64,000 nt of DNA from Ruditapes philippinarum. Taxonomy: Eukaryota. The translations under genes and the position numbers were made by a program. Below, one piece after another: positions 1-48,296 of this stretch (its first letter is position 1; each line of letters opens with the position of its first letter). Location: NCBI RefSeq assembly GCF_026571515.1, contig NW_026862271.1, positions 1-64,000 on the forward strand. The letters run 5' to 3'. Below the pieces are notes generated by a model. That model was given only the letters and a program-made list of their open reading frames with translations. It had not been told where the DNA came from and did not search any database.

Positions 1-974
1 CAATTAAAAAGTGTTGTCAGACATATTTTAAATCAAAATTCTACCGAAACATACTTTTTTTTTTCCTTTGGATGCCAAATATATACATTCTTTTTACATT
101 GCAAACTTCCATCTGAAACCAACGTGGTAGAACTACTTTCAATCCGTATTGTTTCAGAGGTTATTATAGATAATAGCCGAGGATGTTTCGATTGAAAAGT
201 CAGGTTGCATGCATGTTATTTGCCTCATGTGAGTGTTCAATGATTGGACATGAAAATGTCCCGTATTTCACTCCAGAGTTGTATTATGATATTGAACCTA
301 TGTGAGCTTCTTCAAAGCTTTTCAATCCACACATTTACTGATTGATACATATTGCAGTCTAAAAAAGAGAGAAAATCTGACCGTTGTGACAATTTACAGA
401 ATCACTATTAATAGCGAGGTCCACATGTTCGAATATAAACCGTGTTTGTTTTGTTTGTTTGCTTGTTTTTGCCCGTATAACTTTTACTTCTACAGCTTCC
501 GAGCAACACTAGCTAGGTACTGCGCGTACATGTATACCAAACGTATTGTAGTCTGAAGATTTTCGAGAGAAAATTAAGTTAACTTATCTGGTTTCAAGCA
601 CCTTAAGTGCTTGTATAATTATACAAACCCTTAATGATTTTTGTAAGTATTGTGAAGATAATGCCCTGAATTAAAATAAAGAAGAATTTTCTTCTAACAC
701 AATGCACAATGCGTGAGTATTTATCCTGATTTATAGTTAAAGAAACAGTATTCCAGGCCCAAGTGTGGTCCTCAACCAAAAATGTTGATCTAGAGATCTC
801 TCTTGTGATTGTAACCTACTACATATAGGGAAGCCAATACTAAGGGGTCATCATGATTACCAATACCAGTAAAGTTATCTCATTGTCAGTTCATAACGTG
901 TAATACAAAAATGTATATCTGCATGTAAGATACATAGACAATACGATAAGTATTATTGCAAGGTTTTGTCACAA

Positions 975-2943
975 TCACAGATGAGTATCTATTTGTTCAT
1001 TTCCTCCATTTTTCAAAGATGTACTTCTTGCTTGTTCGAGATCAAAAGGGGAATCTTCCTTATTTGCGGTATCATTTGAATTATTAAATTCGATGTTGAT
1101 TGAATCCGGTGCAAGTACACGTAATATTGAGAAATTGTTTATATCATCATAACGTACTTGTTCGTCATCTTTAATGCAACTATAGTTGATTACTGCGACA
1201 TCCTCTTTGTAAGTATATGTTTGCCTTTTCATCTCTGCATTCTGAATGTGAAACAATACACGATATAACAACTTTATTTGAGCATATTTTGCTATGAAGT
1301 GATTTTTATGCTGTTATTATTTTGTTATTAGTTTCGGTAGTATCACAAGATTATTCCTTCTTGCAATAGCATGCGACTGTAGGGAAACACTATGAACTAC
1401 TGAGATACTAAAAGTGAAATGACGATTACAACAGCTTCAGTAGTGAAATGCTTGTACGAGCGAGAAAATGATATTGACGACTATAGCTATAGCTTTTTTC
1501 AACGATAGAAACTGAAACAAGAACAATGGCTGTGGCAGTGAAAAAGCTGCAGCGGTGGTAATAGAAATAGTTAAATACATTAGCATAGGAGGTCACATCG
1601 GTATTTTCAAGGAAGACAAAATCAGCCGTAGTAGCTTGCTAAATGGTTAAGCTACTGGATCACTTGATATAACAAAGTAATGAACAGTTTCAATGTAAGC
1701 AGCACTGGCACACATGTGCTTTAATTAAATGTTGTAAATTTTAAGATACTATAAAATCTTCGTGATGAAGATACTTACCCTAGTTTTCAATTTTCTTTTC
1801 ACGATTATCCTAAAATGAAAGTATAGTTTTGTATAATTAAGGCAACATTTCATCTAGCAATAAAGCAAGCAATGCGGGAAATAAAAGGCTAATTATGCGT
1901 CAGAAATCCATAAAAATAAAATTCTTTAGGAATGTCAATGATATTTTGATTCTTTTTAAAAAAAAAATGGATTTGGAGAATGTTAGATGTTTCAAAGCTG
2001 AAAAAAGTATTACTGAATGTACAATAATGTGTCACAAAGGTAGCAAAATGTGAACAAATTAGTATTTTGACTTCCATACAAAATACTAATTTACTATAAT
2101 TATACCAAATGCCAACAAAGTATACCAAAATTATTTCAGTTTTTGTGACATAAAAATGATAGCATTTCTGAGACATAATGGACCTGTTAGAGTATTTTTC
2201 TATCAGTTTGATGCTGGGATCAGTTTGTTAACATTTCTAATTACGTGATTTATTATATTTATAATAACGGATCGGAAGAAATTATTCATATATTCATTGT
2301 ACTCTCGTTTTGTATGCTCATTCAAATTTAATGATAATCATATGTGTATAGTTATCTTTCTTTGTTATAACATTTGAGTTAAATTTATGATATAAAGTGA
2401 TAATGTAAACGAGATTTAGATAAAGAATACACAATGTGTCTATTTTTGTTTCTTCACTTACACGGTCAATATTACAAGAAATAGTAGTAACAAAACACTT
2501 AAAATTGCTATTAAACACGTGTCACTACATTCACTTGTTGTTGCTGCTATTTTTGTTGCCGTTGTGGTCTGCGACGCCGTAGTTGTATAATGATTGTTGG
2601 TCCCAGTAGGTGATGATGAAGTACTGCTGTCAACTGAATAATTTGTACTTGTTTCTGTTGTGGTAAACTGACGGGAAGTGCCAGTAGGTTTGAATGAAGT
2701 GAATCCATCTGTGGAATAGTTCATACTTGATATTGATGTTGTCATTATCGGACATTTTTGGTCTGTTAAAGTTTCATTTAGCCGACATCTTCGGGATATA
2801 TTGCAAGTCTCTAAATGACTCAGATTTTGTGTCAATGCATGATTATAAAAATCACTGTACTCCATCATTGGTGGTGGACACGGTGCATAATTTAGCATGT
2901 CATGTTCTAATCCACAAAATAACGTTCCGCATGTCATGTACAT
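975..2943 (-). CDS. Paralog P1 of novel APCPP Cys-rich single-pass membrane protein family, ~259 aa; exons 2943-2462, 1809-1779, 1241-975
   Basis: ORF 2458..2982 gives the Cys domain, Thr/Ser stalk and TM, ending at donor GT|GTAAGT (phase 2). A 31-nt micro-exon (TTTTAG|G..AGG|GTAAGT) encodes IIVKRKLKTR. The terminal exon after TTCAG| is in phase 0 (NAEMK...IDTHL*). All phases are compatible. An acceptor lies at 2983/2982 and the first ATG is at 2943. Confidence 0.8.
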
Positions 2944-4273
2944 TCCTATAATTTTAACCAACAAACAAATATGAACAAACACCTGAATTATTTAATTACA
3001 CTCTAACTCCCAACAATGGTTATCACAAAGTTAATATGTATCTAGGTCTGTTATCGACATTGATAGTATGAGCGCATGTTAAATCAATAGTAAAGCTAAA
3101 ACTATACATAGTTTATGAAAGTAGCGCTGCATTGTATGGAAGCCCTGGAGGGACATTTTAAATTAATTTTTAAAACTTAAAACTTATTATTTAAAATTTA
3201 ATTCTTAAGATTTAAAATTTAGTTTTTAATATTTAGTACTTAAATCTCATCATTAAAATGGACGCGGGAAACCATTCCGTTGACAGATTGACGCCACAAA
3301 GAGCGGCACAGAGAATACGAGTTGCGAAAGAAGTAAAGTAAGTTGGACTTTATGTACAAGAAAAACTGTTTTGAATCACACTATAAGCTAGGACACACAC
3401 ACGCACTTGATATCATGGTGAGGACTGGCTTGGACGGGTTTATTTATTTATTTTGCAAAAGACTATCCGTCCCAGACTGTAGGGGTTAAAGGTCAAAATT
3501 GGGCTGAGGGAATATAAAATAACTTGGTACAATTGTTCACCGCCATGACAAGGTGTGTAGAACGTAAGACCCATGCTTAAAGGTCAGAGTCACATTCAGC
3601 TGTCTTTTTTTTATACCTACATTGACTAGTCGTCCATTTTTGATGCAGTTCACAGCGTCTGCAATAAAATAAGCATAACAATCAAGAAGGCTGGACATGC
3701 TACCCTTGGGGATCTAGTTAAAAAGCTTAATAAAAAGCCTTGATTTTAAGACGAGTGTTTAGGGTCACCATCATCCTACTAGTATGATCATTGATTTGCA
3801 TTGGAAATTTACATTATCAGTCTTATAGGTTGTAGTAGTGTGCTTTTAAATGCCTGCAGTTTGCAAAAACCTTGCCACAGATTTTGGTAAAAGTTTTTGC
3901 TCAATGAAAGTGAAATGATAAACAAATACAATGTCAAAGAAGAATCTATACTGAAAGAAACCTCATTTTACCACAATTTATAAAGTCAGAGGCGTTCTGA
4001 AATAATTGCATCAATCCATTAATTGTACTGCAACAACTCTACATAGTTTATTGACTGGTTTACAGTACTGCAAAATACATTTTAACAGCTGATTTTATCG
4101 ATAATGATTGGGAATGTATAGTTGAAACTTTTAATTTAAGTTATAATATTTTCAAAGAGTCTGTTATTTATGTTTTTTGAGGTTATTTTTTTTGACATCA
4201 GTTATAAGGTATGTCCCTCTAAGGCCAAAATTGTATGAAATTGGTTCTTAATAAAACCTCTAATATATTTTAG

Positions 4274-5400
4274 GCAACTGCTGTGAAGAAAGGCAAAGGA
4301 CAAAGCAGTGCATGTAAAATGAAAATGGGATGGCAGAACTACCGAGATGGAAAGTACAGAGTTGATACTGAATCAAAAGGTGGATAAGCACGAGTGATGT
4401 ATTAAACATTTGGGGAAAGTCTGGCAGTAGAAAGAATAAGAAATAAAGCGCTTAGTACGGAGAAAGTAACATGGACAGTGTGGAGGACTACGACTTCTCA
4501 TTGGCTTAAGCATCAGGACAAGTAATTAACAGTTATACTGATGTAGACCAAAAACCATGCAGTTTCACAGAGTATTTTTACAGCTTACAATTTGTCTGCG
4601 TCACAGTGCCATATATACCTGAGATAAAAAAGGAGGACAAAAGTTTCATGATAAATGGAGTCCCTGTGGACAGAACTATTAACATAAAGTACAGCAAAAT
4701 CAAGCACTCATTATATTCTGAAGAACAATCTGAACTATTTGCCAATCAATATCGCGGTGCTTTAATAGGTCTGGGAGTCCAGAAAAAAGATAATTCATGA
4801 ATATGATCCGTTTGAAGGAAGATGGGTATGTGGTTTCTAGAATAGAAGTACAGAACAAAGTCTTCCTAGAAAGAGAGGAAAACGTTTATATTTGTCCAGA
4901 AGCTTCATCGCAGCAACATTTTGTATCGAATGTGCTAAATCAAATATTTGGTTTTTTTAAGTTAAAAATAGTAATTGTTTGGTTCTTGGTAAATCACAAT
5001 TGTTCATGATAATAATTACATTCATTTAAAAATGGTTGATAAACGGAAATTTATTTTGTAGTAATATCAATCGTTGTTCTGTTTTCATGTGAAATTGTAG
5101 GCAACTGACATATATGCTGTAGCCCTGTGATAATTATAAGCATACCAACTTATTGACAAATATAGATTATAATGTGATTATGATTATTATAATAATGTTT
5201 GCTTCTTAAACACCTTTATCTATGTAAAAAGTTGGTTTTTTGTACCTGCCAAATGCACACAGCACATTTGTGGCATATGTTTATTTTTAGTGGCAATTAT
5301 TGTTTTATTTCTCACCCACATGGCAAAACTTGCTATGTTTTTAACGTTACCTGAAAACATGAATCGTGTTATGAATACCCTTTTATTTTTATGATGTAGC
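4274..5400 (+). pseudogene. Degenerate second (passenger) ORF inside the IS3EU element
   Basis: After acceptor tttttag|4274 it reads ATAVKKGKGQSSACKMKMGWQNYRDGKYRVDTESKGG*. Further coding-like ORFs lie at 4606-5009, with a Cys/His cluster (KCTQHICGIC) near 5245. Stops and frameshifts are present. Confidence 0.35.
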
Positions 5401-6027
5401 ATACAGTAAGTAGTTACCCCAGATTGTTATTAATTGGAAGTTGAACCTGAAGCGATTGTAGATACCTTTGATTTTGTACTTTGATTAGTCACAGTAATTA
5501 AAGAGTAAAAGTTGTTACACTGACTTTGCTGCCTTATTTTTAAAGTGGACTGTAATTATACTTTTTAACAAACAACTATAGCCTATCTATACGCCATCAG
5601 TAAGGGAAAAAAGATTAGCATAAGGGATGATACCAAAGATGTCAAAGTTCTGTACTACTATTTCTTTCGCGGAACCTGTAACCAGATATCAATTTCTTGT
5701 AACCAACTGTTTTTAAAAAATGTCGAAAATGTTGGGGTTTCTTGTCATTAATAATTTCAGCCATTTTAGCTCAGAAGAGTAAGTTTCTTTACAATAAACG
5801 CAAAATAAACAAAATATAGATGGTTCAAGAGCTTGTCACAGACTTAATGGATCAAACAATAGTATACAAAAAAATAGATAAATACAGAATACAGAAAAGT
5901 TTGTTTGCCAGTTTTTTTTTAAAACAATATTTTAGATGCGTAACTATATGCATTGAAAACTGTTCAGAAATGAATAAAGCTCTGTGATTAATTCAATAAA
6001 GAGAAAATCTGATATATCTTGATTCCT

Positions 6028-6530
6028 TTTTAGCTCAGCTCAAAGGTGAGCTATTGTCATTGCCCGCTGTTTGTCGTCTGTTGGTGTGTTTCTCAACATT
6101 TCCCTTGTGAACACAATACAGGTCACATTTTGTATCCCATCTTCTTCAAAATTGCTCAGAATGTTTATCTAATTGTTTTTTAGGTTAATTTTTAATCTGG
6201 GTTATCTGGGGTTATAAACTATGTCACTAGTTCAAATAAGAAGAACATAGGGAACACTTTAGATGCTGTATTTTCAACTTGAACAACTTTCAGAATATTC
6301 GTCTGGATAATCTTCAGGTCGAGTTTGAAGCTGGGTCATATGCGGTAAATAGGTCAAATCAAAGAAAAACATTTTGAACACTACAGGTCTTTTTCATTTG
6401 AAACAACTTGTAACTTTATCATAGGTCATATATGTAGGTCAAAGTTGAAATTTGGTCTTTTGTGGTTAAAAAGTCCTAAAATTTGACCCCTTCTGGAGAA
6501 CATTTGGCAAAATTCAAAGAGCTCAAAATG
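6028..6530 (+). mobile_element. Degenerate HINE (Helentron-associated, pearl-like) nested in the IS3EU element
   Basis: Starts TTTTTAGCTCAGCTCAAAGGTGAGCTATTGTCA, followed by a GTCT-like microsatellite and degenerate repeat units. Confidence 0.5.
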
Positions 6531-6974
6531 TTTATCTTCTAATTTCCTACATACGGTTTACTTAGATTTCTAGTAATATTTACTCTGAGTCAGATTTGTC
6601 ATGCAATCAGCAATGTAGGATCAGAATGTTTCAAGAGAGGTCTCGTGTTTAAGTTATTTTATTATTATTTTTTCCGTTTGATTTATGACCTTTTCTAACA
6701 ATAAGTAACGCGAACTCGTGAAATTTTAACTAGCAGTTAAACATAAAAAAGCACATACTTCAAAAAAACATGAACATCAGAAAAACATGAACATCAATGT
6801 TTATTCATTAAAAAGTATATATATTATTGTCTAATGTTCAATCATTTGTATTTGTTTCATATTCAATATCCTACAAATCAACATAAACACCATAATCAGT
6901 AGAACCTGATAGTTCTAGTACATTAAACAACATTTTATTTCTGTTTCTCCAGTACAAGTGTCTACACGTTTCTG

Positions 6975-7315
6975 TGGTCAAATTCCAGTGAATACAATGC
7001 GATAAAGTCCCGCTAGAAGAACATCCGTTACATAAATTGCAAGCATTCTGCATGAATAGGGTTTGACGTATCAATTCGTTCAGGAGCTCTCAAATCCTTC
7101 AATGTATTCATCCACCTTGGTACAATAAGCCGTCTCCGCTAAACTGCAATTCTTTTTCTACTGTACCTGTACGATTTCTTGTGAAGTATACATGACACGG
7201 TGACGCCCTTAAATATTACAACGAAGTATCCTCTTTAACTGACGAAGACCAAGACGTATGTTGTGGCGACAAAGTAAAACAATTTCTGCGTACTTCAAGT
7301 CAGCATGAAAGTTTT
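6975..7315 (-). pseudogene. IS3EU-like transposase remnant
   Basis: Frame-disrupted peptides FHADLKYAEIVLLCRHNIRLGLRQLKRILR, VEKELQFSGDG, IDTSNPIHAECLQF and HWN resemble the N-terminal HTH and C-terminal parts of IS3EU-type transposases as I recall them. The DDE core appears deleted. Confidence 0.55.
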
Positions 7316-10300
7316 CACTTCTAACCTGGTGCTTCCGTTTTCAGTGGTAATAGGGATGACACAATTGTTGACACAGGAGTCATTGTCAATAAAATGATAA
7401 AGGCAAACTTCAACGGGATCTCCATGGTTACGACCTTAAAAGAAATAAAAATAAATGAAATATAGCGTTATAAAAACAAAGGGCTGGGGCTGTCAACATG
7501 TAATATTGTTATCCACCACCAACAACTAAACGTTATCGTTAGACAAACCTAACCCCCTGACTATTTGACACCATGTAATCAATAAAATGTAAAGCGGCAC
7601 CGTATCTGGTGTCTTTGATAAAACTAACATATCTTAATCGTTTCAACTGTTAGCATGAAAAATATAACAATCGAGATATAATAGTTCAGGGAATGTTATT
7701 GTGTATATAAAAAATGACAATTACCTGTAGGCAGCTACATCGAATTTCCCAGTTTTTCTTCGTGCAGAGACCGTTGAATTCAAATACCCGCGTCTTATGT
7801 TTTCTGATCTTAATTTTTAAGTAATAAGAATTAATTTTTAAATATTAAGAATTAAATTTTAAATATTAAGAATTAAATAATAAGTTTTAAATATTAATCT
7901 AAAATGTCCCTCCAGGGCTTCCATAGCATTGTTATATTTGATTATTTCTCATCACATATATAATTTCAATATCTAACTTTGTTTAATATGCTAATACAGG
8001 AATATAACTCTTTGGTATATATATATATATGTTATATTTATTAGAAGCAATTTTTCTAAATCTTTGATGTTTGTTTATTATTTTATCTATACATTTATAT
8101 GGTAATGTTTTCATAAATGAAAAATGGGTAAGATTTTTTCGGAATTTCTTCACTTATATCATTTATACATTCCTATTGTGATATATGGTGCGAAAATAAC
8201 CCGCCTTTTATTTTCTTTTAACGCTTAATAAGTACCATACCAGTAAAAATTTGGTTGTACAAGCGAATCTTACTGTGACTTCTATTTCTTGAATTCACAC
8301 AACTTAATACCAGATTTACAGGAAAGAACATGTTATATTATGGAATTCTTGTTAAACAGACCTCCTTCGATGGCAAGTGACAGATTTCCAATTTATCATT
8401 AATGAAATTCGTCACCAATAACAATACGGCTAAGGTGTAAACAAAGTAGTAGTAAAGATAGAGAAAAGAGGATGTTGGAAAAACTAATGGGGAGCCCCAT
8501 GTTGTCGGATGGTTGAATCCCAAAGTACTCAAAAGCTTTGTAGACAAAAAAATGGAGGAATTATTACTCATGAAACAAATTCTTCGTAGTTTACTAAATG
8601 CTCAACTACTTAAATAATTTCTTTCGGTAGATCTGTGTTTTTGTGAAATTTCAATAAGCTTCGGATATATTTCGATGCATTAGAAAATGTCGTATAAACA
8701 AGGAATGTTAGAAACAAAATGTATTATATCGCATCATAATTGCGCTCATATCTTAAATTACGTTATCTTAAAGGATGCGCATGTGTGTGCACATGTAGCG
8801 TCTATGTGTGGGTGTGGGTGAAGTTTGTTTTTTGTTTTTTTTTTGGGGGGGGGGGGGTAGCATTGTTACAGTTTTAAGGCCTTAATTCTCATATGTTCAT
8901 GAAATGTGTAATTTAGTGTAATTGTATTAGAAATAACTCAACGGATAAATTAGTAATAAATAAGGAAAGAAAATATTGAAAATTATTAAATCTATAAAAT
9001 GTCTGCTTGAAAATGTTGACATAATTATGTTAAAAAAACAATAACAAACGAACAAACGAACAAAAGCTCTATGATAAGAAACATTCTGTTTAAATTCTGC
9101 TATATTGCAAACATTGTGCTGTCACATGTATTAATATTTATGCACATGTTTATGATAGCTATAAGAATTTATTCATGCTTGTAAAACAATAAAAATAAAA
9201 CACAATAACTGCAAGCACGTTCATATTTTTAACACTTAGCAATAACTGCAAGCATGTTCATGAGCTCGTTATAAATATGGCCTCAAACTCATTAAAACAA
9301 TACGTGTTCCTTAGTCTGAATAAAACATGTTTCAATGATAAACGAAGGATCAATTTCTTGAGTTAAATAGGTCAAGGACTTGTTGTGCACCAATGTGCAA
9401 ATAGCTAGCTCAAATAACATAATTTAACCGTTTCGAAATCGTATTCATGCAGGTGATTTTCATGATTTGATAACGGGCGAAACACCACATGAAGCCACAA
9501 AAATTTGTTTTATGCTAAAAGCAAATAGACAATGATTATGCAGACGATCGTGCAGTTCTCTTTATTATACGTGTGCATATGAATGATTGAGATAACGAGT
9601 AACACGGTAGTATTTAAAATTAATGTGTCTTGCATATGCATTTGTAAAATGTTAACAAAGGCAAAAGAGAGCAGCTGAGTTAAAATAAACAAAGAATATT
9701 TCTTCTTTTCAAGTGTTTTATTGCTGTTTAAAGATAACAGTCGCACAATACAAGGCGCTCAGTTTTATGGAGGTCGTGAGACTTTTCAAACTTTTCAAAA
9801 TTATATAGGATAGGTATTTTGTTTCACTGAACTGTAAAAAAAATTATGATTGTGAAACAAATGGTTTAATAGATAATTTTGTATACAATATATATATGAT
9901 ATATATATAATCAGTCATTTTATGATTTAAACAATAAAAATGTTTCACAGCTATTTGACATTTTTAAGAAAAGTGCATCCACGAATACTGATTGATTGAT
10001 AAAAAAATGATTAAATTTTGATTTGTTTTATGTTAAAATTTTCGACCTCTTTCATTTCCTTTCTTTCGAGGATGCGTAATATTGTATCAATTGCAACTTT
10101 TACAATGATGCCTGCAACAGTCGCATCACTTTAATGTGCAACAGTTACTCTTTTCTCAAAGTCCGTGCATATTTTTTGAGCAATTAAAACATTCTTATTT
10201 TAAACTCATCGCAAGTGATCTCATTAAAACACGTTATTACAGGATAACATTTTCGACGTGTACTGATTGTGTACCGAATACGCTGTTTCTTTTGTTCTGT

Positions 10301-10316
10301 TCCTCAATTGTCATAT

Positions 10317-10904
10317 GAGCCGCGTCATGACAAAACCAACATAATGGGTTTGCGACCAGCATGGATCCAGACCAGCCTGCGCATCCGCGCAGTCTGATCA
10401 GGATCCATGCTGTTCGCTTACATACTCTATAACAATGTTCATGTTTGTGCCATGTTATGTCTCACTCCATTGAATGTACATTATACTAACATATTTGTCT
10501 TATCTTGTCCCTGTGTTGTTGATTTTTTTTCTGATCGCTATCATATTTAAGTGATTGCAAGTTAATAAATTATAATTTCAAATTCAAGTTATCCATGAAT
10601 ATTTAGGATTTATCTATAAAAGATATTAATAAAAGACGTTACACTTTATCGTTTGTTAAATCACAACTATTTTCTTTCACTATATTTTTTGTATTATTTG
10701 ACTCAAATGAAATGAGATATGCAGTTTTTATGTCAAGATTATAAGTCTGATCAGGATCCATGCTGTTCGCTATCAGTTTCTCTACTTGTTATAGGGTTTG
10801 TAAGCGAACAGCATGGATCCTGATCAGACTGCGCGGATGCGCAGGCTGGTCTGGATCCATGCTGGTCGCAAACGCATTACGTTGGTTTTGTCGTGACGCG
10901 GCTC
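10317..10904. mobile_element. Two truncated Sola-type palindromic MITE copies in opposite orientation around ~300 bp of unrelated DNA
   Basis: 10317-10435 and 10744-10904 match the MITE at 14904-15138. Their central spacers are in opposite orientation and the flanks (ATAT vs AATT) do not form a TSD. Confidence 0.7.
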
Positions 10905-14285: not shown

Positions 14286-14903
14286 ACACAAAAAGATTGT
14301 GTTACCTTTTAAACTCAGCACATGACATAATTAAACAGAGTTATAATACAGACTGTCATTGTTGGCATTTCTGTAAAGAAAAGACCAAATATATTTAACC
14401 AGCAATAGGGCATCACATGCGACTTCACAGACATAGTTTTGCATTCTTATATTCACATTAGACATATTCAGTAAGTTTTTTTCCTAGATTTTCTATAAAT
14501 TTCTGCTATAAAAATATTATACCCAAATATGAGCACAGTATAAATTTAAAACACTAGCATTAACCGTACTATGTATATGTATATTTGAGCATTATAAAAC
14601 CGAAAGATGACCGCTTCTAATTTCATAATGAAAATTTACTTAAACATGAATGTTACGGGACACAAACATGACTCGATGCCACGGTCATTGAGTTGAAGGA
14701 CACTTTCTTTTGGTAATTACTAATTAACACAGCGTTCAAATTGGTAAGACCTTTTTTCAATGTTTTGCTCTTAGTCACGTTATGTCCACCAAAGTGTAAA
14801 CTTTGAGTGCAAAGGTAAAATTCAAAATGACTTGATTGTGTTCAATTTTATACTACGCATAAATAAACAACAATCCACTTGACCAACGGGCATTTCGATA
14901 AAT

Positions 14904-15138
14904 GAGCCGCGTCACGACAAAACCAACATAATGGGTTTGCGACCAGCATGGATCCAGACCAGCCTGCGCATCCGCGCAGTCTGATCAGAATCCATGATGT
15001 TCGTTTACCAACTCTATTACAAGTAGAGAAACTGATAGCGAACAGCATGGATCCAGATCAGACTACGCGGATGCGCAGGCTGGTCTGGATCCATGCTGGT
15101 CGCAAACCCATTATGTTGGTTTTGTCGTGACACGGCTC
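14904..15138. mobile_element. Complete palindromic MITE, Sola-type
   Basis: GAGCCG...CGGCTC termini, ~100-bp TIRs and 4-bp TSD AAAT on both sides. Confidence 0.85.
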
Positions 15139-16707
15139 AAATATTGTTAAGAATGTACGAAATCCTCATGGTGCTGATGTATTGTCTAATCAGGTATATC
15201 CGAAAATGTACAGACCTGTCACAAACAATAGAGGTGTGTAAAAAAAATGCTTCACGGGTGGTTTGTTATACTCACATAACCTGCAGTCAAAACTGATAAA
15301 CCTAATGCTTTATTGTTTAATGATTTCCGGCATATTGTAGGATAATTTTTATTACATTTATGACAGAGTGATCATATTTGAATAACAATAACGCACGCGC
15401 AAAAACCTGACAAATACTGTAAATCTTGATTAAACATGGACTTTTTATTGCCTTTTTATTTATTACAAATCTTTATGCAATAAAGATAACAATACTTTTT
15501 AAAGATACGATGTTCTACAAACCAAATTTAGCAAATTTTAAAGAAAAACTACGATTCTCATCATACATAAAAGGTGATATTTGAGTAACGTAGAAAAGAA
15601 AAACATGCACATTTGATGGAAAATTTTATAACTTATGCACTAATTGTACAAATTATAAAATGACGCTAATGTTTTGTTGTTTTTTGTTGTTTATTTTTTT
15701 TTGTCCGCCAGGGTCTATTTTGCCTCCTAATTTCAAGTTCGTCCTATTGCAGATTGCTCGAAATTGTTGCCTTTTTTCACGTGACATTTTAACAGTACTT
15801 GATATTGTGATAGTATTCAGTTCAATTGATTAAATTGTTCGTATATATTCGGTGAATTTCATTAGATTAAATGTACTCTGTCCATAAAGTTCTTAATTTG
15901 ATAATTTCAGACAACATCTCCCAGTTTTTTTTTTAGATGACACTAATTAAGTTGTTGAATTGTTCCGATATTTTCCTCTTAATATTTGCATTAGCTATTC
16001 AGTGCTGGAAACATTTTTTTTTGTAAACTTTCAAAGAATTGTTCCATATTTCTATGTCGGTATCAAAAGACTGTTTCTTCACTGTGTCATTTGTATTAAG
16101 AGCAACTGGACCAAAAGCTTAACCAAGGACAATTGTAACAATGTTGTTTCTCGATGTATTCTTAAATGGCCAAGTTCTTCTCAATCTTAACTCATTAATA
16201 GTTACATGGAGGACTTTGCCTTAGCTATGTTAGCTTTGTATTTGGGAAATGAGATTAAAAGTTTGTAGGAAGCAGGTATTGAAACTAAATTTAAAGAATT
16301 AGTCAATTTTGCAAGGTATTTCAAGAAAAGAATTCACAATAGAGCTTCATTATGGCTTGATGTATGAAGTTTGAATTACTCGTCAAATGGAGTCTTAACT
16401 ATAAAACATAAGTAGGAAAAATATGATGAATGTCATTACATCAAAATAAAGCTTAAATTGTATCCAACAAGTGTTGCCCACATGCATATTTAATTGATGA
16501 TAAATAGCGAATACAATGGTTTTTTTTTAATTATTCACTGAAATATACAAGGGTTATCTGCCATAAACAAATACAAACAAAGGGCATAACAAGGAGCGTC
16601 TCAAATGCTTTACTTCCGTTTTAGATAAGATACCACATTGTATTTTATGCGATGTGCACGATTTTGTAAAAATAATAGTTCAATGTTTAGAGCCATGTAA
16701 TATTAAA

Positions 16708-17356: not shown

Positions 17357-19747
17357 TTACAACACTGATTCACTCCTATTGATATCTTTATCGTTTTCCA
17401 ATAAATGAGTACTTGTTTCTGGACATTGTATGTCATCGTTAGTTGTTTGTTCTTTTCTGCAATGTTTGCTTATTGAATACTTGGCCTGAAAATTAAAAAA
17501 GAGCTTATATGAATTTGTGTAAATAATAACTTTTACAGCAGCTGTTAAGTAGTATGCAGTTAGAGTTTGAAGTGGAAGTGAAATAGCAATGACATTTATT
17601 AAATCCGTTATCGATCTGTAGTCAACCTTTCACCCTTTAAAATTACGGTGCACCGATCTTTGTAAAAACGTATTGACCTATGCCAAAATAACATGCACTA
17701 GTTGTAGACTTTAAACTGTACCAAATACTCCGAAAAACGATTTTAGGAGCATCGTAGAACGAAAAGTGTTCTGGGGTGCATGTCCCCGTACCACATCAGT
17801 TGCACGGGTAAAAAATCGTGACTGTGGCCTGAATTTTAATAATTAGTAGAAACGATGACAAACGTCTCAAGTATTTCAAGCAGCAAAAGTGATCTTTGCG
17901 CGGTCTCGTTGCAATGAATTAATATAGGTTTAGATTACCGGAGACAGTATTGAACAATTAGAGTACAAACAGAAGTAGCGATAGCGATAGCACTGACATA
18001 AGCAATGAAAGTGACAAGAGTGTTGATGAACCATAAGCAATTGCAATGACAGTGACAAAAAACATCCGGATAATCAGCAGCGATGATGATTTGCAGATAT
18101 AATAGAAAGTAAAAATGTCCGCAATATATTTGTGAAAGCAAAAGTTGAAGCACTATCATAGGTGGCACTAGTTGTTGTAGCGACAGAGATATCAGGGACG
18201 ATACTACCGATAGTACAAGTAGCGAACATTACAATTACAATGGTTATATCAGAAGCAAGACAGTGATTGTCAGTGACTGCACCAACAACAGAAGCAAAAG
18301 CGATGGTAGCAATAATATCATTGGCAGAAACGGTAGTTGAAGAGGTTGTACTGAAACTACCAACAACAATACATGTAGAATTGGTTAAACATATTTATCT
18401 TTTAAAATACATATACATGCTAGTGATTTAATTATATAGAAAGCATTTCAAAAATCCTTACAAAAAAGGATAAGATTGGAAGATAAAGTCTTACAAAATT
18501 CTTTTCCTGAATTGATAGTTGACATATAATGTAAAAGATGCTTAATTCTTAACAAAGAAAACTGAGGCTTATATCTAAAAAGAGAAAACAGATGTGTATT
18601 ATTTGACTGCCTAAAATAGATATGGTTTGACGCAATCAGTAGCGATTGCAATTATTTCAACTAATAAATATAACTATTTTACGAAACGTAAGTAATGGTG
18701 GGGAGCAATGGAAGGGAAAGAATAACACATTCAAGTAAAGAATTACCCTTCTCTTCCTAAATTTTCTATAAGCGCTGAAAATGAAATATGTAAAACGATT
18801 TCATAATTATACCTAAATTAGATCATTTTGATTTTTATACAAATATGTAGAAACAAAATTTAGTGTTACCATTCGCAATATTGTAATTGGTGATACTCTG
18901 ATTTTTACTAATCCATTTGTTATAATTTTGTGATAAATTATTTGGTTTTCAAGAAAAAAACAATATTATTTCTCTACTCAACCACTAACTAAATTGCATT
19001 TTCTATGGAGATGTGACGGAAAAGCATCTTTAAATTGCAACTGAATACATCCTTACACGCCGCAGTTGTGGTGTGATCAAATAATGAAAATTATAACAGT
19101 AGCGCTTCGACAGTCCATAAGTATGCTTATAACAGTTATTCATTAAAATTTAAAAAGTTTGTTTTTTTTTAATTTTGAACATACATGTACTATAATGGAA
19201 GTCTGGATGATTGTCAACAGAGAAAAAAAGTGAGCTGTTTTGACGTCTAGCTCATTAAGAGACGTTGAGTTGGTGTTCAACTAAAAATAATTACATTCCA
19301 TGTAAGCATGTACACAATCACGTTATTATTGCTCATTATTGAACAAAATTTTATAAAAATGTTATATAATTATATAGAAAACACGTTTACTTACATATAT
19401 GATAATATCCAGATACCAATTATAATAACTACAACAATTATTACTACTAAGGTTGTTATTGTGGTGCTTGTCTGATTGGTTGTCGGTGTGGTTGTACTTC
19501 TTGTCGTGCAGGGAGTCTGTATGATTGGACAGTCTGTTTCAAAAAGTATACTATTTGTATAACATCTTCTGGCGATTATACAAACATCTTTTAACAACAA
19601 ACTGTTGTTAAGAGCATGATCTCGGAATTCCAAGTATGGTATCATCGGGGGAGGGCACGGTGCAGAGCGAGTAGCATCCTCAATACTTCTCCCTTTCATC
19701 GAACACAAACCGGTGTAAAAAGAAGTGAACATGAGTTTATAATCCAT
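17357..19747 (-). CDS. Paralog P2 of APCPP family, ~169 aa; exons 19747-19395, 18774-18747, 17485-17357
   Basis: ORF 19391..19747 (MDY..APCPPP..RDHAL..CIIARRC..TM) ends at AT|GTAAGT (phase 2). A 28-nt micro-exon TTTCAG|C GCT TAT AGA AAA TTT AGG AAG AGA AGG|GTAATT encodes AYRKFRKRR. The terminal exon TTTCAG|GCC.. encodes AKYSISK...RSESVL*. Confidence 0.78.
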
Positions 19748-21539: not shown

Positions 21540-23252
21540 TTACAATTTTGTAATTGTTATGCCTTGAGTTTCATTATTTACATATATAACGCTTGATTGC
21601 TTTAGTACAGTTTCTTTTGACAAATTTTGATCACATTTGTGTCCATGTTCATCATATATAGTACGTTGTGGTTCCGTAACCGGAGTAGCAGAAATAATTC
21701 TTATTTGTTTTGTCTTCCTTAATTTCAAGTAGATTATCATTCCTCTGAAATTTAGAAGGTAAATGTCAAACTCGTCAATTAATATATTTACAATGACAAA
21801 CATTAGCCAAAACAAAATCAGAAATATGAAGACAAAGATCCAACAGTGGAGAGTGATACTAACGTAACGCATCCCCCGGCAACGTAAGAAGTAGGAACCA
21901 TGATCACATTAAAATGTAGTTTTTCTGTGTGCTTCTGTAAGTAATGTTGTCAAAATTATATACGAATTTACGAGTACATGAGTTATAGAATAATGAGTTA
22001 TATCAAATAGTGGGTTATCACATTTTCAAAAATGCATTTTTATTTATTTATTTATTTGCTTCATGGCTGATTACAAGATTTATAAACGAACATGATATAT
22101 AAAGAGCTTATAATGAGGTCTTATAAGAGGTACAAAATCTTTAAAGCCATATCGACATTAAATGTTTTAACACCTGTAAAACATATCCAAATAACACATT
22201 TTGTTTCAACATCTTAACAAAAGATACTCGCACGAGGTAAAAGCACTTTTACTTACATATTTTTTCTGGAGTTTTGTCATAGCATTAAATGATTAAATCA
22301 ATGAAATACTGCAAGATATGTTTTAAAAATGAAACTGTCAAGTTTGGGTTTTTCATATTAGTGTTGACGCCTTTCGTTTTCTTTCATACATTTATTTTAA
22401 GAAAAAACTAATAATGTCAGTTTAACTTAACAAATTATTATCTTGAAAATTATCTAGAGAATTAATAACATTTTAAAAGCTGTGTACAACGTTGTAAAAT
22501 TTTTGGTTGCACGATTGGCAAAAATGCGAGAAATTCAACAAGAACATTAATTTTCGAAATTCCTTTAGATTAACTAAATATCTAGTGTAAATGTTTCAGA
22601 AAGATCTTTTAGATTATTTTACTTATTTTATGAAATTCCCTCTTTAAGATTGTAATTTTAAAATGACAAATACAAATTCTGCTAATATTCAGTTATTCCC
22701 TGTAAATTTCAAAGGAGGTCAAACCGTCTTCGTCCGAAAAAAGTAATAAAACTGGAGGATATTACTTCAAGAGAAACATTTGAAACGTGAATATTTGTAT
22801 GATTTTTGTCGTAAGTTATTACCAAACCATACTCACACGATGATGACAGCAATAGCAGACAAAAGTACGATTAGTATAACTATACCAATATCTTCGGAAT
22901 TAGCTTGTGAAATCGGTAAGTAATCACTGGATAACACTGTGCTTAGAGATGTACGAACTGTAGACGATGTCTGATACGTCGATGAAATCGTACTTGCAGA
23001 TGAGTTACCAGTAACAATGCTAGATAAATCATCTGTTGTCACAGTTGTTGATGTTAACGAGCAGTCAATATTAGAACCAGTTAAACCACATCTTGTTGCT
23101 AAGTTACAAACTTCATGCATACACAAACTTTGATTTAGTGCATGATCTCGGAATTCATTATAATTAAACCATTGTGGAGGACAAGGTGCAAAATTCAGAA
23201 AATCTATGTTTGTGACATTAGACGTCAGTTTACATAGACCAAAATAATCCAT
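21540..23252 (-). CDS. Paralog P3 of APCPP family, ~206 aa; exons 23252-22837, 21744-21540
   Basis: ORF 22833..23252 ends at GT|GTGAGT (phase 2). Acceptor TTTCAG|A GGA ATG continues in frame as GMIIYLKLRKTK...GITITKL*. Confidence 0.82.
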
Positions 23253-26232: not shown

Positions 26233-27212
26233 TTACGCAGTTGTTGTTTTAATATTTTGTAGGTTTTGTTCTAAATTTCCTTCACTAGAATTTTCTGAAA
26301 CAGGTTCTTTAATCGTTGAATAGCACTGCAATTCAAGGTCTTCTTTTGTTGTTCTAGGTGTTTCTTTTACAGTGTGTTGAGAATTTGTTGTATTAGCCCT
26401 TTTCTTTCTTTCCTTGTAGAGTGATATTCCTCTGAAATATAACGAATAACACATGGGTTTAACTGAAGAAGAAATGTTTTTTTTTATTATTTTGTTATAC
26501 TATGTTTTGGCTGCAATATCTAAGCAAATGTTATAGAATATTAAGTTTTTAAAGATATACTCTGCCCATCTTTGAGTAAAATATTCTTACGGAATATGTC
26601 GATAAATAAAAGAATGAATAAGCGGGGTTTTCTATTACAGGTCAGGTAAAGTTAATCTTCACTTAATGACACTATATATGCATATTGTGACCATCTATAG
26701 TGTGTAGAATTTTAAACATAACATATCCATTGTGTGTGAAGTCAAAAAATGTTACTTTATATTAAAAAGAAACAGTGTATCAACGGGAACATCTTTCTAA
26801 ATAATACATTTAGGTTTCCTTGAACGTGCCTAATAAGTGTATTATCAAATTATACTCACATGATTGTCATGATTGTCATGATAATGGCTGCAAGAATAGT
26901 CCAAACCACACTGAGTATGATTTTAATGTCATCGTCATTATTAACGTCGTCAAATGGTTGGTTATTACCAGTAACAACGCTGGATAAATCAGTTGCTGTC
27001 GCAGTCGTTGATGTTAACGAGCAGTCAATCTCAGAACCAGTTAGACCACATCGTTTTGCTAAGTTACAAACTTCATGCATACAAAAACTTTGATTTAATG
27101 CATGGTCTCGGAATTCTCTATAATTAAGCCACGACGGAGGACAAGGTGCGGAATTAAGAAAATCCGTGTATGTGATATTAGACGTCAGTTTACATAGACC
27201 AAAATATTCCAT
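26233..27212 (-). CDS. Paralog P4 of APCPP family, ~183 aa; exons 27212-26860, 26431-26233
   Basis: ORF 26856..27212 ends at AT|GTGAGT (phase 2). Acceptor TTTCAG|A GGA ATA continues as GISLYKERKKR...IKTTTA*. The ectodomain is 59/70 identical to P3 by manual alignment. Confidence 0.82.
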
Positions 27213-30864: not shown

Positions 30865-33089
30865 TTATAATTTTGCAACAATACAAGTATCATTCTTTTC
30901 TCCATTTGAACGACTTCGCAAACCGCTTTTAATTACTGGTGAATCGGTTGGGTCATTATCTTTAAAACTTGTAAAATTTCCATCATTTTCTTTAGTTGAC
31001 TGTGAATGTTCAATAACGTCTGGACTACTTTTAACTTTTTCATTTGTAGTAACATTTTCATAGTGACAGTCAGCGTGAACTTCAAGAATGTTAGATGATC
31101 CTCGGTCACTAGATTTCCCGCTAGTTTCACTGTCTGTATCGTTAAATACGACATTGATCGCATCTTGTTTAATATCACCACTCCTTCTTTTGTATACTAC
31201 AATTATCAATCTGAAAATTAACAAGTTAAATTGAATTCATATGTTACTAGATTTTTCGATATAATATACATTCTAAAACGACAATCAACATACAAAAGAT
31301 TACAAATAAAGTCACATGCTTAAATTCCTTTGGAATTCAACACCAACAGTATTACCGAAAAACAAGGAGTATACAATTGGAAGGGGGTCGAATTAATCAA
31401 CATATACGTATGTTAGTAACATTTATAGAATGGAATACTTTTATTTCCAGTCAAAGGTTTTGTAAAATGACATATAAATCACAATAATAATGAGATCAAC
31501 GATCAATTAAAAATGTAAACGAAAATAAAGCTTGATTCGTATTAGAAAGTAACAATAGAGAGAAAATAACTGATAAACAAACTAAAGTTTACAAACTTAA
31601 CTACTAAACACCATATTTAAAATGTAATGATACTTTAAAACACAATAACTGTATATAGTATCTTATTGTAGGTTTTCTTTTAAATTACATTCCATGAAGC
31701 ATTTTACAAAAATAAATTTGCTGATCTGAGACATTTTTTCAAAGTTCAAATTCCTATCTTTTATTTCACTATATGAAATGCTGCGTTGACTAGTAAAAGC
31801 ATTACAAGCAGTTACAAAGTGAAGCTCGTCTTCAACTTCTTTTCAGTTGCACTCCTCACAGAATCTTCTATCAGACTTGATTGTTTTATATCCACCAATC
31901 TCTATTTGCAATGTGTGTTAGAACTTATCCTTATCTTTGTAAAACAAGTTATAATATCTTTATCTTTGATTCTGCTAAATAAGGTTGCCTACAAAAATCT
32001 GTACATAAGTACGTAGTTTTCAATCATTATCTTTACCATTTTTCAATTTATCAATAAATTGTATTGAACAATAAGATATTGATTCTTTATATAAATTTTC
32101 AGATATTTTTAAATATTTTAGTATAAAGAATACACTGAATAACCAACTATTTCTTTTACAATTGTAAAACATTTCGCAATCAACATGAGCATTGTTTTAA
32201 AAAGTTCACTAACTGTAGATTTAGTTAATCTTGTATAATACTTAATTAAACCGATTATGCAATCAAAATATAAATGAAACCTCCCCAATTCACCGGAAAC
32301 AGCATCATTGCATGTTTTTTGTGAATCCCTAACACACGTTTAAGGAATTGTTTATGTAATTTTTTCACATGGCATATCATTAAATCATTTAATGCAATTA
32401 ATGCATTGTCATTTTGTTTGTAAATATTGAAGAAGAAATAGATACTGTTTAAACCAAAGCATTGAAATAGACAAAATCGCCCTTTCACTCTACCGGTTGC
32501 TGTATTCAGAGTATTCGTTCATGTGTACAGTTAGCTCATTTTGCAGAAATAATGCTTTGAGACTATGCAACCGCCACGAGAATTGTTTATTAACTAACAG
32601 GTCGTTTGCATTGATGATTATGCAAAATGTTTGAAAAATATTTATGATTTACATGAATTTATATGAATGTGCATGAATTTGCAAGTAAATCTTTACATTG
32701 CTTTATAAAAGAATAAATAAAGAAGAAATATAAATGTTAATGTTCGTTCTTTGACATTCAAAGAGTTGTTATAACACGACAAAATATACATGTACTTACA
32801 TGCTAATAAGAAGAGCAACGCTTAACACAGATGCAATGATGATTATACAAAATAAATTACATCCTACTTCGGCTTGGGTATCGTGTACAGGGCAGTCCGT
32901 AGTCAGTTCTGAACTTTCTGACATGTTGCATCTTCTAGCAATACTGCAGACCTCCCTCTTGCACAGCTTTCCTATGGCTGTCATTTTCAGTTGAATATAG
33001 GACAAAAACGGTGGAGGACAAGGAGCACACTGCAACATGTCTTCAATCTCGCCGCCAGTGGTACAAGAACACGAGTGTACATAATCCAT
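30865..33089 (-). CDS. Paralog P5 of APCPP family, ~211 aa; exons 33089-32800, 31210-30865
   Basis: ORF 32796..33122 contains MDYVHSC..APCPPP..CSIARRC..TM and ends at AT|GTAAGT (phase 2). Acceptor TTTTCAG|A TTG continues as LIIVVYKRR...HYENV...IVAKL*. Confidence 0.8.
31790..32400 (-). pseudogene. LINE ORF2 3' fragment (Cys/His knuckle region) in the P5 intron
   Basis: Motifs KKLHKQFLKRVLG, KIRISS, QIEIGGY, RRFCEEC and EVEDELHFVTAC. Confidence 0.7.
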
Positions 33090-44700: not shown

Positions 44701-47700
44701 AGTCTTTAATATTCAACACCTTTTATTACTTGATTTGTGAGATCACAAATATTTACTGACGCATTATTATGAATATACCTTAAAATAATTCTGGAAATAA
44801 TCGGATAGCCAATTGATAAAACTGTTTACACAGGAAAGGTCTATTTGCATCCATCTTGTAATAAGCTGTTATTGCACTAATGATTTTTATGTTATAGAAA
44901 TACATGTAATTGTATATTTCAGCATTACTGTACTATTTTGTACCAGCTGGTCTGTACTGTCTATATAACAACCTTCAGTTTGAGAATCTAGCTAACTATG
45001 ACCCAACCACATACTACCTTCTTCTACAGTTCAGGGTGGTTGTTACTGGAGTTGTCTTTCAGGTAAGTCAATTTATTTACTTGTTGTTTTTTTGTCAGGA
45101 ACAATTTCAGGAGTATGGAGTATTATAATCTGTAAACTTTTCTATTTTTGCAGACTCTTTTGCAAAATACTTTAATCAAACTTTATCAAATGGTGCATGT
45201 AAAAACAGTTTGATTGTGTCTATATTATATTTTTGGTGTGAATATGTTTACCTGTTTAAAAATCCTTATTAGTCCCCTACCGGTTTAACCGGAGGGGACT
45301 TTAGATTTACCCTCCGTCTGTCTGTCAGTCCGTCAGTCCGTCCGTCCACAAAACTGGATCCCGCGATAACGCAAAAAGTACTGAAAATATTTTTATGAAA
45401 CTTGATATATGGATAGATGGCAGTATGGAGATTATGCACGTCTTTTTTTTTCTTCCTATGTTGAAAATTCTGGTTGCTATGGCAACAAATAGTCTGAAAA
45501 TATGGCAAATTTAACACATAAACTGGATCCAGTGATAACTCAAAAAGTACTGAAAATATTTCTATGAAACTTGAAATATGGGTAGATGGCAGTCTGGAGA
45601 TTATGCACATCTTTTTCTTTTCTTCTTATGTTGAAAATTCTGGTTGCTATGGCAACAAATAGCCTGAATTTCAAGATTTCTGATTTAAATTTTTCAGCTT
45701 TTTCACTATATGTTCTTTATTTCTTAAGGTGTTTACTTCAAACTTTAAATATAAGTTTCTGGTCATCAACCACATCATATGTGACAAGGTTTATAACTCT
45801 AGCACAAAAAATATCAGTATTACCTCCCTTGAACTTAGATTTTTAGGGGAAAAAATGTTGTCTTTTTTAAATAACTTCTTTATTTCCTAATGTATCTACT
45901 TCAAACTTCATATATATGTTTCTTATTAACACTCAACATTTTTGAGAAGGTTAAATACTCTAGCAAGACTATTTCCAGAATTATGTCCCCCTTGAACTTA
46001 GATTTTTTTCGAGAAACTGGTATTTTCACTCCAACTTCTTCATTCCTTATAGGATTTACTTTAAAATCCCACATCGTAATAATATGACAAGGTTGTATAA
46101 ACATAATTTCCTTACTAAGCATGGAAACTTAACACATTACTGTGATATAGACAAACTTATTTTATTATGTTTTGTGGTCGATATTTTCAAATACAGACTT
46201 CATCCTCAAATTCATTATAAATGGCAATACACAGGAGTGTATGACAATTAAAGAACTTTTTGAGGGACCGGTAGGGGACTACTGTATTGCCCGCAATACT
46301 ATCAAATGCTTGTTAAGTAAGTTTTGTACATGTGATTATGGACAACATTATTCAATTTTTCTTATTCTTGTTTTTTTCGTAACAAAATATATCAGTCCCT
46401 CATGAAAAAAACTTAGATTGTAGTACACATAGATCAAAGCTTTAATTTTCCAAAATCGTGGCCAAGTGGTTAAGGCTGTTCACTTCAAACCACTTGCATC
46501 TGCCCACTGTGGTTTTGAATTCTCGATAGGTACTTTGGATTCTTTGATGTGAGGAAACTATCCAACTAAAATGGGGAATGTCAGTGATTCTACTCACTGT
46601 ACCCGTTCCTGCCTGAACTAATGCACGGAAGGGCACTTGAGGTATTCCACCACCAGTAATGCTGGAAATTCGCTATTTGACCTATACTTTGTTGGTGAGA
46701 CATAAAACCTAACCATCCAACATGGTAAGGCTTCATGTTAATTCATGTTATATAAGAAAGTTTCAATCTGTGTTATTTTTGGAGATTTGCTAAGATGGAA
46801 TGTTTGATATGATTATAACACATATATGTGAGAAAGTTGAAATGATGATCTTTTTAATTTTTCTTTTTTTTTTCCAGATTGTATTTCAGAAACAGTTAAG
46901 TCGTATACAGTGGGTATCTCTAGTATTTCTCACATTTGGCTGTATAGTAAAGGAGTATGGTAGACTAACTGGTAGTGGTACAGCTGCTGATGCAACTAAA
47001 GAAACTTCATTCCTTAATCTACATCTATTCTTAATCCTTGTTCAGGTAAATTTTATAAATTTTTCAGCAAATGTAGAAATGGGTTTTCATAACTGTTTTT
47101 TTTTCCCCAAAAGAAAAAGCAAAAAAAAGAATAAAATTCATCCTTATTATGTCTCTTGCCTATGAGGACATCAAGACAACCAAACAGTGTAATAAAAAGT
47201 GTATTAATGTACTAATTTGATTACGAATTTTCATATCATGAAAGTCTGGCTCAGTTTCATTTCTAGCGCCTTCTTGAAATTTCATATAAATTATATAACA
47301 GGGTACATACAGTCTTAAAAAGGTCTTAAATGTCAGCCCCTTTCTTAAAAGTGCTTAAAAATGAAAAATAATATCCTTCAATTTGCTTTATTTCTAAAAA
47401 AGTGCTTGAAAAGTACTTAGTTAATATCTGAAAAGGTGCTTGTAAATGAAAAGGATGACATATTCTTGGTTAGAAAAGATATAGTTTCAACAAACAATCT
47501 CATTTAGTATTAAAGTTAAAAAATAAAATAAATGTTTGCTCACAATTATTGGTTACAGCTAGTGTGTGTATGACAGTACCATTATAAGTTACTTGATCAT
47601 TGATATTTGTTTGACACAAAAGCTTGAAAAATCATAAAAAAAAGAGTTTAAAAATGCTTGAATTTTGGCATTGAATGTCTGTATGAACCCTGTTTAAACT

Positions 47701-48296
47701 TTATGCTATAGAGCCACTGTTACATAATTTTACATTACATGCTAGTTTTCAGTGACTTTTGAGAGGCATTTGTTGTAATTTAATTGTTTGGTAATCATTT
47801 CATTTTTGTATTTCAGGTGTTCTGTTCATGTTTTGCTGGTGTGTACAATGAATATTTACTGAAGGGACGTGGTGTAGACATTCATATCATGATGCAGAAT
47901 GTATTTATGTACTTGGACTCGATCGTCTGCAACGGGCTTATTCTTGCATACAAAGGACAGCTTACCGACGCATTCACTGCATCAAGCCTTAGTTCAATTT
48001 TCCAAATTAATGTTATATGTATAATGCTGAACAACGCAGCTATTGGTATTGTCGTGAGTCTATTTTTACGATCTCTCAACTCCATTCTCAAGACATTTGC
48101 TAGTGCTTTAGAACTGATGTTTACAGCAGTATTGTGTTGGTTCCTATTTGGTATAACTATAGATGTTTATACAATCATTGCTATTGTTATTGTGTCGGCA
48201 GCCACCTTCCTGTATGCTCACAACCCTGTGGTAAATGTACCAAAAGATGAAACTCAAGACAAAGAGAAGGCAAATGGGAAATCTGAAACAGTTTAG
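38767..48296 (+). CDS. senju: SLC35A-family nucleotide-sugar transporter, UDP-galactose transporter senju-like, 345 aa; exons 38767-38851, 42315-42432, 42976-43022, 44923-45062, 46878-47045, 47817-48296
   Basis: Six GT-AG exons splice to a 1038-nt open frame. Motifs LFPTK..LFINQGILVTAS..YNTVTVVLLTECIKL, VPAGLYCLYNNLQF, FAGVYNEYLLK and LNSILKTFASALE are typical of SLC35A/senju. Confidence 0.92.
39460..40016. mobile_element. Mutator/MuDR-type MITE in senju intron 1
   Basis: 9-bp TSD CCGCGTCCT (39451-39459, 40017-40025) and inverted arrays of AACTCGGC / GCCGAGTT. Confidence 0.85.
43452..44605 (+). mobile_element. HINE with internal tandem repeats, inserted in a palindromic repeat (~43250-43400)
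   Basis: TTTTATGCCCCC..GGGCGGCATA start, (CTGT)n tract, repeated units, and a 3' GGCATTCGTCA..TGACAGCTCTT hairpin. Confidence 0.75.
45266..46313 (+). mobile_element. HINE
   Basis: TTATTAGTCCCCTACCGG..GGGGACT start, (GTCC/GTCT)n tract, ~170-bp duplicated unit, and a subterminal inverted CCGGTAGGGGACTA near the 3' end. Confidence 0.75.
46455..46712 (+). mobile_element. tRNA-derived SINE with Meta-type core
   Basis: A-box GTGGCCAAGTGG and core ATGTGAGGAAACTATCCA...ATGCACGGAAGGGCAC..GCTGGAAA. A second partial copy lies at ~58410-58580. Confidence 0.65.
47299..47692. mobile_element. hAT-like MITE
   Basis: TIRs CAGGGTACATACAG / CTGTATGAACCCTG. No clear TSD. Confidence 0.5.

Follow-up and report, generated by a model that had tools for sequence, protein, structure and literature searches.

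A lone ITAM-like tyrosine pair in the predicted cytoplasmic tail of a clam membrane protein and the uncharacterised family that hosts it

Does a pair of tyrosines at the right spacing make a signalling receptor out of an otherwise uncharacterised clam membrane protein? The question is raised by a gene, P1, at the start of a 64,000-nucleotide stretch of Ruditapes philippinarum DNA (contig NW_026862271.1, positions 1 to 64,000, referred to here as the window). A preliminary description made from the sequence had noticed a tandem tyrosine motif in the last exon of P1 and proposed that it could recruit tandem-SH2 proteins, either Syk/Shark kinases or SHP phosphatases. We have analyzed the gene that carries the motif, the family to which it belongs, and the occurrence of the motif and of other short signals in the tails of that family.

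RESULTS AND DISCUSSION

Gene structure of P1

The gene model derived from the sequence consists of three exons with GT-AG boundaries on the minus strand, which together code for a frame of 259 amino acids (aa). Its components are as follows:

2462..2943, minus strand: main coding exon, with the Met, the Cys-rich domain, the Ser/Thr stalk, and most of the transmembrane helix; X1 and X2 contigs cover 2509-2947
about 2931-2752, minus strand: Cys-rich domain, C5-C64, inside the main coding exon
starting at 2511, minus strand: transmembrane helix, residues 145-163, mostly in the main exon
1779..1809, minus strand: 31-nt exon, in which the helix ends and the basic stop-transfer cluster KRKLKTR lies; GT-AG ends, in frame
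975..1241, minus strand: last exon, coding for 88 aa of the tail (predicted to be cytoplasmic) and the stop; AG acceptor, open frame
1140..1190, minus strand: tandem tyrosine motif INYSCI-KDDEQ-VRYDDI, from the translation; unaltered in the X1 RNA contig
978..986, minus strand: T-H-L at the C terminus, a predicted PDZ-binding motif of class I; contigs continue past the stop

After the basic cluster, the tail has a length of ~95 aa. Four of the 24 listed runs were compared with positions 300-10200, with contigs giving neither strand nor level. The joint between 1241 and 1779, a GT-AG intron, was found in the contigs of two of them, X1 (RNA) and X2 (presumed RNA), so the last exon is indeed connected to the transmembrane part of the gene, as the preliminary description had assumed. 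The two raw-read runs, X20 and X22, had a depth of about 1 over P1 and did not contain this joint. The stop codon is crossed into the 3' untranslated region (UTR) by contigs of both X1 (301-1021) and X2 (853-1043). The other splice, from 2462 to 1809, is absent among the 15 of 21 joints that were listed, and we infer it from its GT-AG ends, the open frame, and the fact that each of the five paralog models has a phase-2 intron in this position. The main coding exon is also supported by an allele-like protein, P0001.

Among the coding differences listed for the X1 and X2 contigs (best-supported rows, 2462-2943 and 975-1241), 10 of 14 change the amino acid, which suggests either weak constraint or diversification, with paralog reads possibly mixed in. 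At the 5' end, positions 2949-2941 of the minus strand read Ile-Gly-Met in P1 versus a Met-Gly-Phe start in its nearest relatives (P0002 and P0003), which suggests that P1 may have lost an older start codon and now starts two codons downstream, at the next Met. Possible acceptors for a 5' UTR intron are found at 2983 and 2946; the 5' end of P1 itself did not appear in RNA. A signal-peptide-like frame at 7467-7321 (minus strand), with a phase-compatible phase-1 donor, was not adopted as a first exon because no joint to it is listed, it is repeat-like in X20 (depth of about 30, with indels), and the Met of the relatives adjoins the domain.

A tandemly expanded clam family

P1 belongs to a tandem set of five paralogs, as tblastn identified four more copies of the domain between 17357 and 33089, all of them on the minus strand:

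17357..19747, minus strand: paralog P19, 3 exons, 169 aa, without the tandem motif, ends in -SVL; its spliced form is matched by P0006 (Logan contig)
21540..23252, minus strand: paralog P23, 2 exons, 206 aa, without the tandem motif, ends in -TKL
26233..27212, minus strand: paralog P27, 2 exons, 183 aa, with a single YSTI
30865..33089, minus strand: paralog P33, 2 exons, 211 aa, with a single YENV; identical to LOC132718484 (Ruditapes philippinarum), P0005

Regarding the surroundings of these genes, nucleotide-sugar transporter exons at 46794-48296 on the plus strand (PF04142, E value of 4.6e-15 for 47784-48293) provide a synteny marker beside the cluster. Long inverted repeats that belong to a single sequence family and look MITE-like on visual inspection occur at about 14900-15140 and 10310-10900, a 165-166-bp unit forms tandem arrays at 48833-49965, 53204-54075, and 54913-55651, and Thr/Ile/Ala-rich low-complexity open frames are found at 17935-18394 (minus strand), within the second intron of P19.

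All five paralogs follow the same layout, with a Cys-rich helical domain of ~60 aa, a Ser/Thr stalk, and one transmembrane helix, without a signal peptide. A profile built from six domains gave 41 matches at an E value of ≤0.001 in 1.84 billion representatives, two of them false, leaving 39 family representatives at 50% identity. The 13 true members for which a species name was obtained come from Ruditapes, Mercenaria, and Mactra, and a cluster arrangement is also suggested for six Mercenaria members, whose contigs have the same length. Within the domain, all 36 aligned rows keep P21-C22-P23-P24 and C53 without change.

For the analysis of the tails, we removed the false hits P0029 (epiplakin-like) and P0040 (zonadhesin-like), the alleles or duplicates P0001, P0004, P0005, P0006, and P0044, and 15 proteins whose tails are shorter than 30 aa, which left 27 proteins; a set of 26 tails excludes also P0028, judged to be an intron read-through twin of P0032. 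The first Cys lies at most 15 residues from the Met in 26 of the 27 proteins, and the positive-charge bias puts the C terminus in the cytoplasm in all 27. N-glycosylation sequons are in excess on the N side of the helix (47 versus 23 expected) and likewise above expectation on the C side (53 versus 38). From these features, the family would consist of type III (N-out, signal-peptide-less) single-pass surface glycoproteins.

The domain itself has no counterpart in the collections searched. AlphaFold2 predicts a small four-helix model for P1 (mean pLDDT of 76, pTM of 0.59). Pfam gave no match for either the domain or the tail of P1, and only transmembrane- or stalk-type matches for other rows; a PDB sequence search of the domain returned 0 matches, Foldseek of the domain model against PDB and viral libraries gave none at an E value of ≤0.001, and the ESM Atlas contained no usable match for the domain. 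VIA-align ranked the Pex14 N-domain highest (Z score of 4.0, root mean square deviation of 2.4, 47 aligned residues), a match that was not accepted because its score is below that of a common helical arrangement. Pex14 N-terminal domains account for four of the six highest-ranking rows (Z scores of 3.4 to 4.0, model of window positions 2746-2943), and these rows probably reflect a generic small helical bundle. Searches by six gene ids and by architecture found no description of the family in the literature outside subscription journals and supplements.

The tandem tyrosine motif

Translation of the minus strand from 1190 to 1140 gives INYSCI-KDDEQ-VRYDDI, exactly the sequence and position in the preliminary description, with the Tyr codons at 1184-1182 (Y191) and 1151-1149 (Y202). 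The other structural statements made there hold as well. The arrangement YxxI-x7-YxxI fits the ITAM core YxxL/I-x6-8-YxxL/I and the separation of 6-8 (up to 12) residues, both halves (INYSCI and VRYDDI) fit the ITIM pattern [IVLS]xYxx[ILV], in a consensus taken from that description and from general knowledge, and the spliced exon, together with the charge bias, places the motif in a predicted cytoplasmic tail. As had also been pointed out, the acidic residue is missing at Y-3 of the first module, where P1 has a Val; the ITAM consensus D/ExxYxxL/I, as quoted in PMC6994640, requires it. Y191 falls within an N-Y-S sequon. Over 992-1241, the X1 contig has a single difference, at 1120, outside the motif, which is therefore kept in this allele.

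The ITAM core appears in 0.6 to 0.7% of the shuffles of the P1 tail. Short motifs such as this one arise by chance, as the preliminary description had cautioned; that description scanned the whole window, in which 7 of the 535 other stop-to-stop frames of at least 40 aa also match the core. The family-wide chance of at least one ITAM core is 0.12 for the 27 tails and 0.03 for the 26 tails with 10 juxtamembrane residues removed. Two ITIM-like halves at ITAM spacing were obtained in 0.04 to 0.055% of the P1 shuffles and in 0.18% family-wide; although the pattern was defined post hoc, this low chance is the strongest point in favor of the original reading.

Across the family, the ITAM-core pair is present in only 1 of the 27 tails, that of P1. 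It is absent from the four paralogs in the window and from P0002 and P0003, the nearest relatives of P1 (grouping support of 99/99), which share 81% of the domain with P1 but have different tails, without any YxxL/I/V. The full D/ExxYxxL/I pattern occurs in 0 of 26 tails. A distant member, P0033 (R. philippinarum LOC132735671), codes for a wider tyrosine pair, YEDL-x11-YEVV. Tyrosine motifs of other kinds are close to what shuffling predicts, with ITIM-type motifs in 2 of 27 tails (3.1 expected), YxxL/I/V in 9 of 27 (9.7 expected), a hydrophobic residue at +3 in 10 of the 54 tail tyrosines (9.1 expected), and no enrichment of YxN. Acidic single sites (YDDI, YENV, YEDL, and YDNI) are found in 4 of 26 tails versus 0.56 expected (P = 0.002), a pattern again chosen post hoc.

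A one-to-one ortholog of P1 with an alignable tail was not found among longer proteins, metagenome contigs, or BLASTP results. None of 29 candidates among the longer proteins was a homolog of the P1 tail, 0 of 148 matches to the tail pattern in metagenome contigs were confirmed (0 of 123 by domain alignment there), and BLASTP of the P1 tail against P0003 gave no significant alignment (E value of 14). The tails are largely unalignable and diverge fast, so the absence of the pair in paralogs says little about a role specific to P1. What stands of the ITAM reading is thus the motif, its spacing, and its location in the tail, while the step to tandem-SH2 partners (Syk, Shark, or SHP) is unsupported by conservation. 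We consider that reading weakened rather than refuted, because the pair is confined to a single tail, yet the search yielded no ortholog in which its conservation could be compared.

A recurrent C-terminal PDZ-binding end

P1 ends in T-H-L, which conforms to the class I PDZ-binding end T/S-X-hydrophobic-COOH (10.1101/2020.03.27.012369). Such an end is present in 11 of the 27 tails, P1 included, versus 0.84 expected, a number reached by 0 of 5,000 shuffles; the background is 5% of random frame ends. It is spread over 9 of 15 tree lineages, and taking one random member per lineage gives an average of 6.2 of 15. The differences in X2 change P1 residues -4 and -3 and leave T-H-L intact. The remaining 16 of the 27 tails have no PDZ end. 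Tail ends of the form K/R/H plus L/I/F are also in excess (11 of 26 versus 0.54 expected), with P33, P0010, and P0038 among them; some of these tails have no S/T at -2. The tail signal common to the family is a predicted class I PDZ-binding (scaffold-binding) end and not the tyrosine pair.

What the tyrosines may do

Our preferred reading, held tentatively and with slightly less than even confidence, is that P1 is a PDZ-anchored, N-out protein of the cell surface, from a clam family that has expanded in tandem, and that its tyrosines act singly if at all, with the ITAM spacing incidental. The small disulfide-bonded ectodomain, carried on a glycosylated stalk, would sense a ligand or partner. 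Clustering or localisation of the protein would depend on the PDZ end, via PDZ scaffolds. Short motifs would come and go from one gene to another in the disordered, fast-changing tail, and Y191 and Y202 would serve as separate docking sites for SH2 adaptors or as sorting sites. YDDI seems the more credible single site of the two, either for an Nck-type SH2 adaptor or for AP-2 sorting, in which YxxI-type motifs have a role. A site of similar form, H-I-Y-D-E-V, has been proposed to bind Nck (PMC4810170). As no relative shares the tyrosine pair, it is likely a one-off docking site and not a conserved immune switch. Against the PDZ and single-site view, the pair is rarer in P1 than chance predicts and the PDZ end is missing in most of the tails; the excess of sequons on the C side and the location of Y191 inside one also count against it.

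The same tail can be read in other ways. A new functional ITAM, with a Src-family kinase phosphorylating Y191 and Y202 on clustering, Syk or Shark docking, and P1 acting as an activating member, is plausible because an oyster ITAM receptor, CgIgR, has been reported to recruit CgSyk (PMC6994640) and fly Draper to recruit Shark (PMC8092387). The exact spacing in a spliced, predicted cytoplasmic tail and the family-wide chance in the trimmed test agree with this; however, the lack of an acidic Y-3, the absence of the pair in all other tails, including those of the nearest relatives, and the higher chance in the untrimmed test, together with the matches in other frames of the window, make it unlikely. 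If the pair were instead tandem ITIMs, its I/V-x-Y-x-x-I halves would recruit an SHP2/Corkscrew-type phosphatase and P1 would be inhibitory. Both halves fit [IV]xYxx[IL], two ITIMs in one tail come up in about 1% of the P1 shuffles, and a modelling preprint (PMC12132298) argues that close or flexible spacing of the sites is tolerated by tandem SH2 proteins, but ITIMs are not enriched in the family and the tandem-ITIM examples considered are spaced far wider than the 10 residues between the P1 tyrosines, at 22 residues in PECAM-1 and IpLITR (PMC4810170) and 31 in the GAB1 tandem site (PMC12132298), so we regard an inhibitory P1 as improbable.

It could also be that the tyrosines have no function and that the pair arose by chance in a disordered tail under weak constraint, which we would call rather unlikely. 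The lack of a general +3 hydrophobic bias, the predominance of amino acid-changing differences among those listed for X1 and X2, and the lack of any tail homolog among those searched all point in this direction, although the pattern is improbable in P1 shuffles, YDDI-like sites recur in several tails (counted post hoc), and the only allele fully read over the motif retains it. The most far-reaching proposal combines the observations into a tandemly expanded clam receptor family that has no signal peptide and a new type of helical, Cys-rich ectodomain. Its members would exchange their signalling tails, and P1 would have independently evolved a working ITAM-like switch. We give this little credence; if true, a bivalve would have a receptor system of paired activating and non-activating members that uses neither Ig nor lectin domains.

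Significance

That a bivalve membrane protein carries a single ITAM-like motif is unsurprising, since an oyster ITAM-Syk receptor has been reported (PMC6994640) and the P1 instance is unconserved. The motif in P1 is real and its interpretation is weakly supported, which leaves the uncharacterised host family as the more interesting object. Its usefulness lies in the 39 representatives, an unmatched domain, genes clustered in tandem, tails that vary, and a PDZ end that recurs. Its members, if they act as surface receptors, would be candidate mediators of lineage-specific recognition in farmed clams. Similar in the domain and different in the tail, P1 and P0002/P0003 are a natural pair for studying the origin of signalling motifs.

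Comparison with known systems

The type III TNF receptors BCMA, TACI, and BAFF-R have no signal peptide, a short Cys-rich N-terminal domain, a stalk, one transmembrane helix, and a variable tail. P1 resembles them in architecture only. The lack of a signal peptide and a single N-out pass are predicted for the whole clam family from the position of the first Cys and the charge bias, but the P1 domain is predicted to be all-helical and gave no listed match to a TNFR-type domain in Pfam, PDB, Foldseek, or VIA-align. Neither a TRAF-binding motif nor a death domain was found in the P1 tail with patterns from general knowledge and with Pfam, and TRAF motifs are not enriched in the family tails (TRAF2, 8 of 27 versus 7.3 expected; TRAF6, 2 of 27 versus 2.0).

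Like oyster CgIgR-Syk (PMC6994640), Drosophila Draper-Shark, and mouse Megf10-Syk (PMC8092387), P1 crosses the membrane once and has a predicted cytoplasmic tail in which two YxxI/L modules stand at ITAM spacing. It differs from CgIgR, Draper, and Megf10 in the missing acidic Y-3, in a pair that is not family-wide, and in kinase binding that is putative, and its ectodomain is a small Cys-rich helical domain, versus Ig or EMI/EGF domains in ITAM receptors. We do not class the pair as an ITAM because its Y-3 is not acidic and binding is putative, even though spacing and location agree. With PECAM-1 and catfish IpLITR 1.1b (PMC4810170) P1 shares the I/V-x-Y-x-x-I halves, and its YDDI resembles the YDEV site for which Nck binding has been proposed; it differs from both in having 10 residues between the tyrosines versus 22 and in the absence of Ig domains.

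The NCBI relatives, which are named only "uncharacterized" or "hypothetical," differ from P1 in that none has an ITAM-core pair. They belong nevertheless to the same family: LOC132716831, LOC132714088, LOC132718484, and LOC132735671 of Ruditapes philippinarum, proteins of Mercenaria mercenaria (e.g., LOC123545282 and LOC128547830), and KAL4238862.1 of Mactra antiquata share with P1 a PCPP-centred Cys domain, a stalk, and a transmembrane helix.
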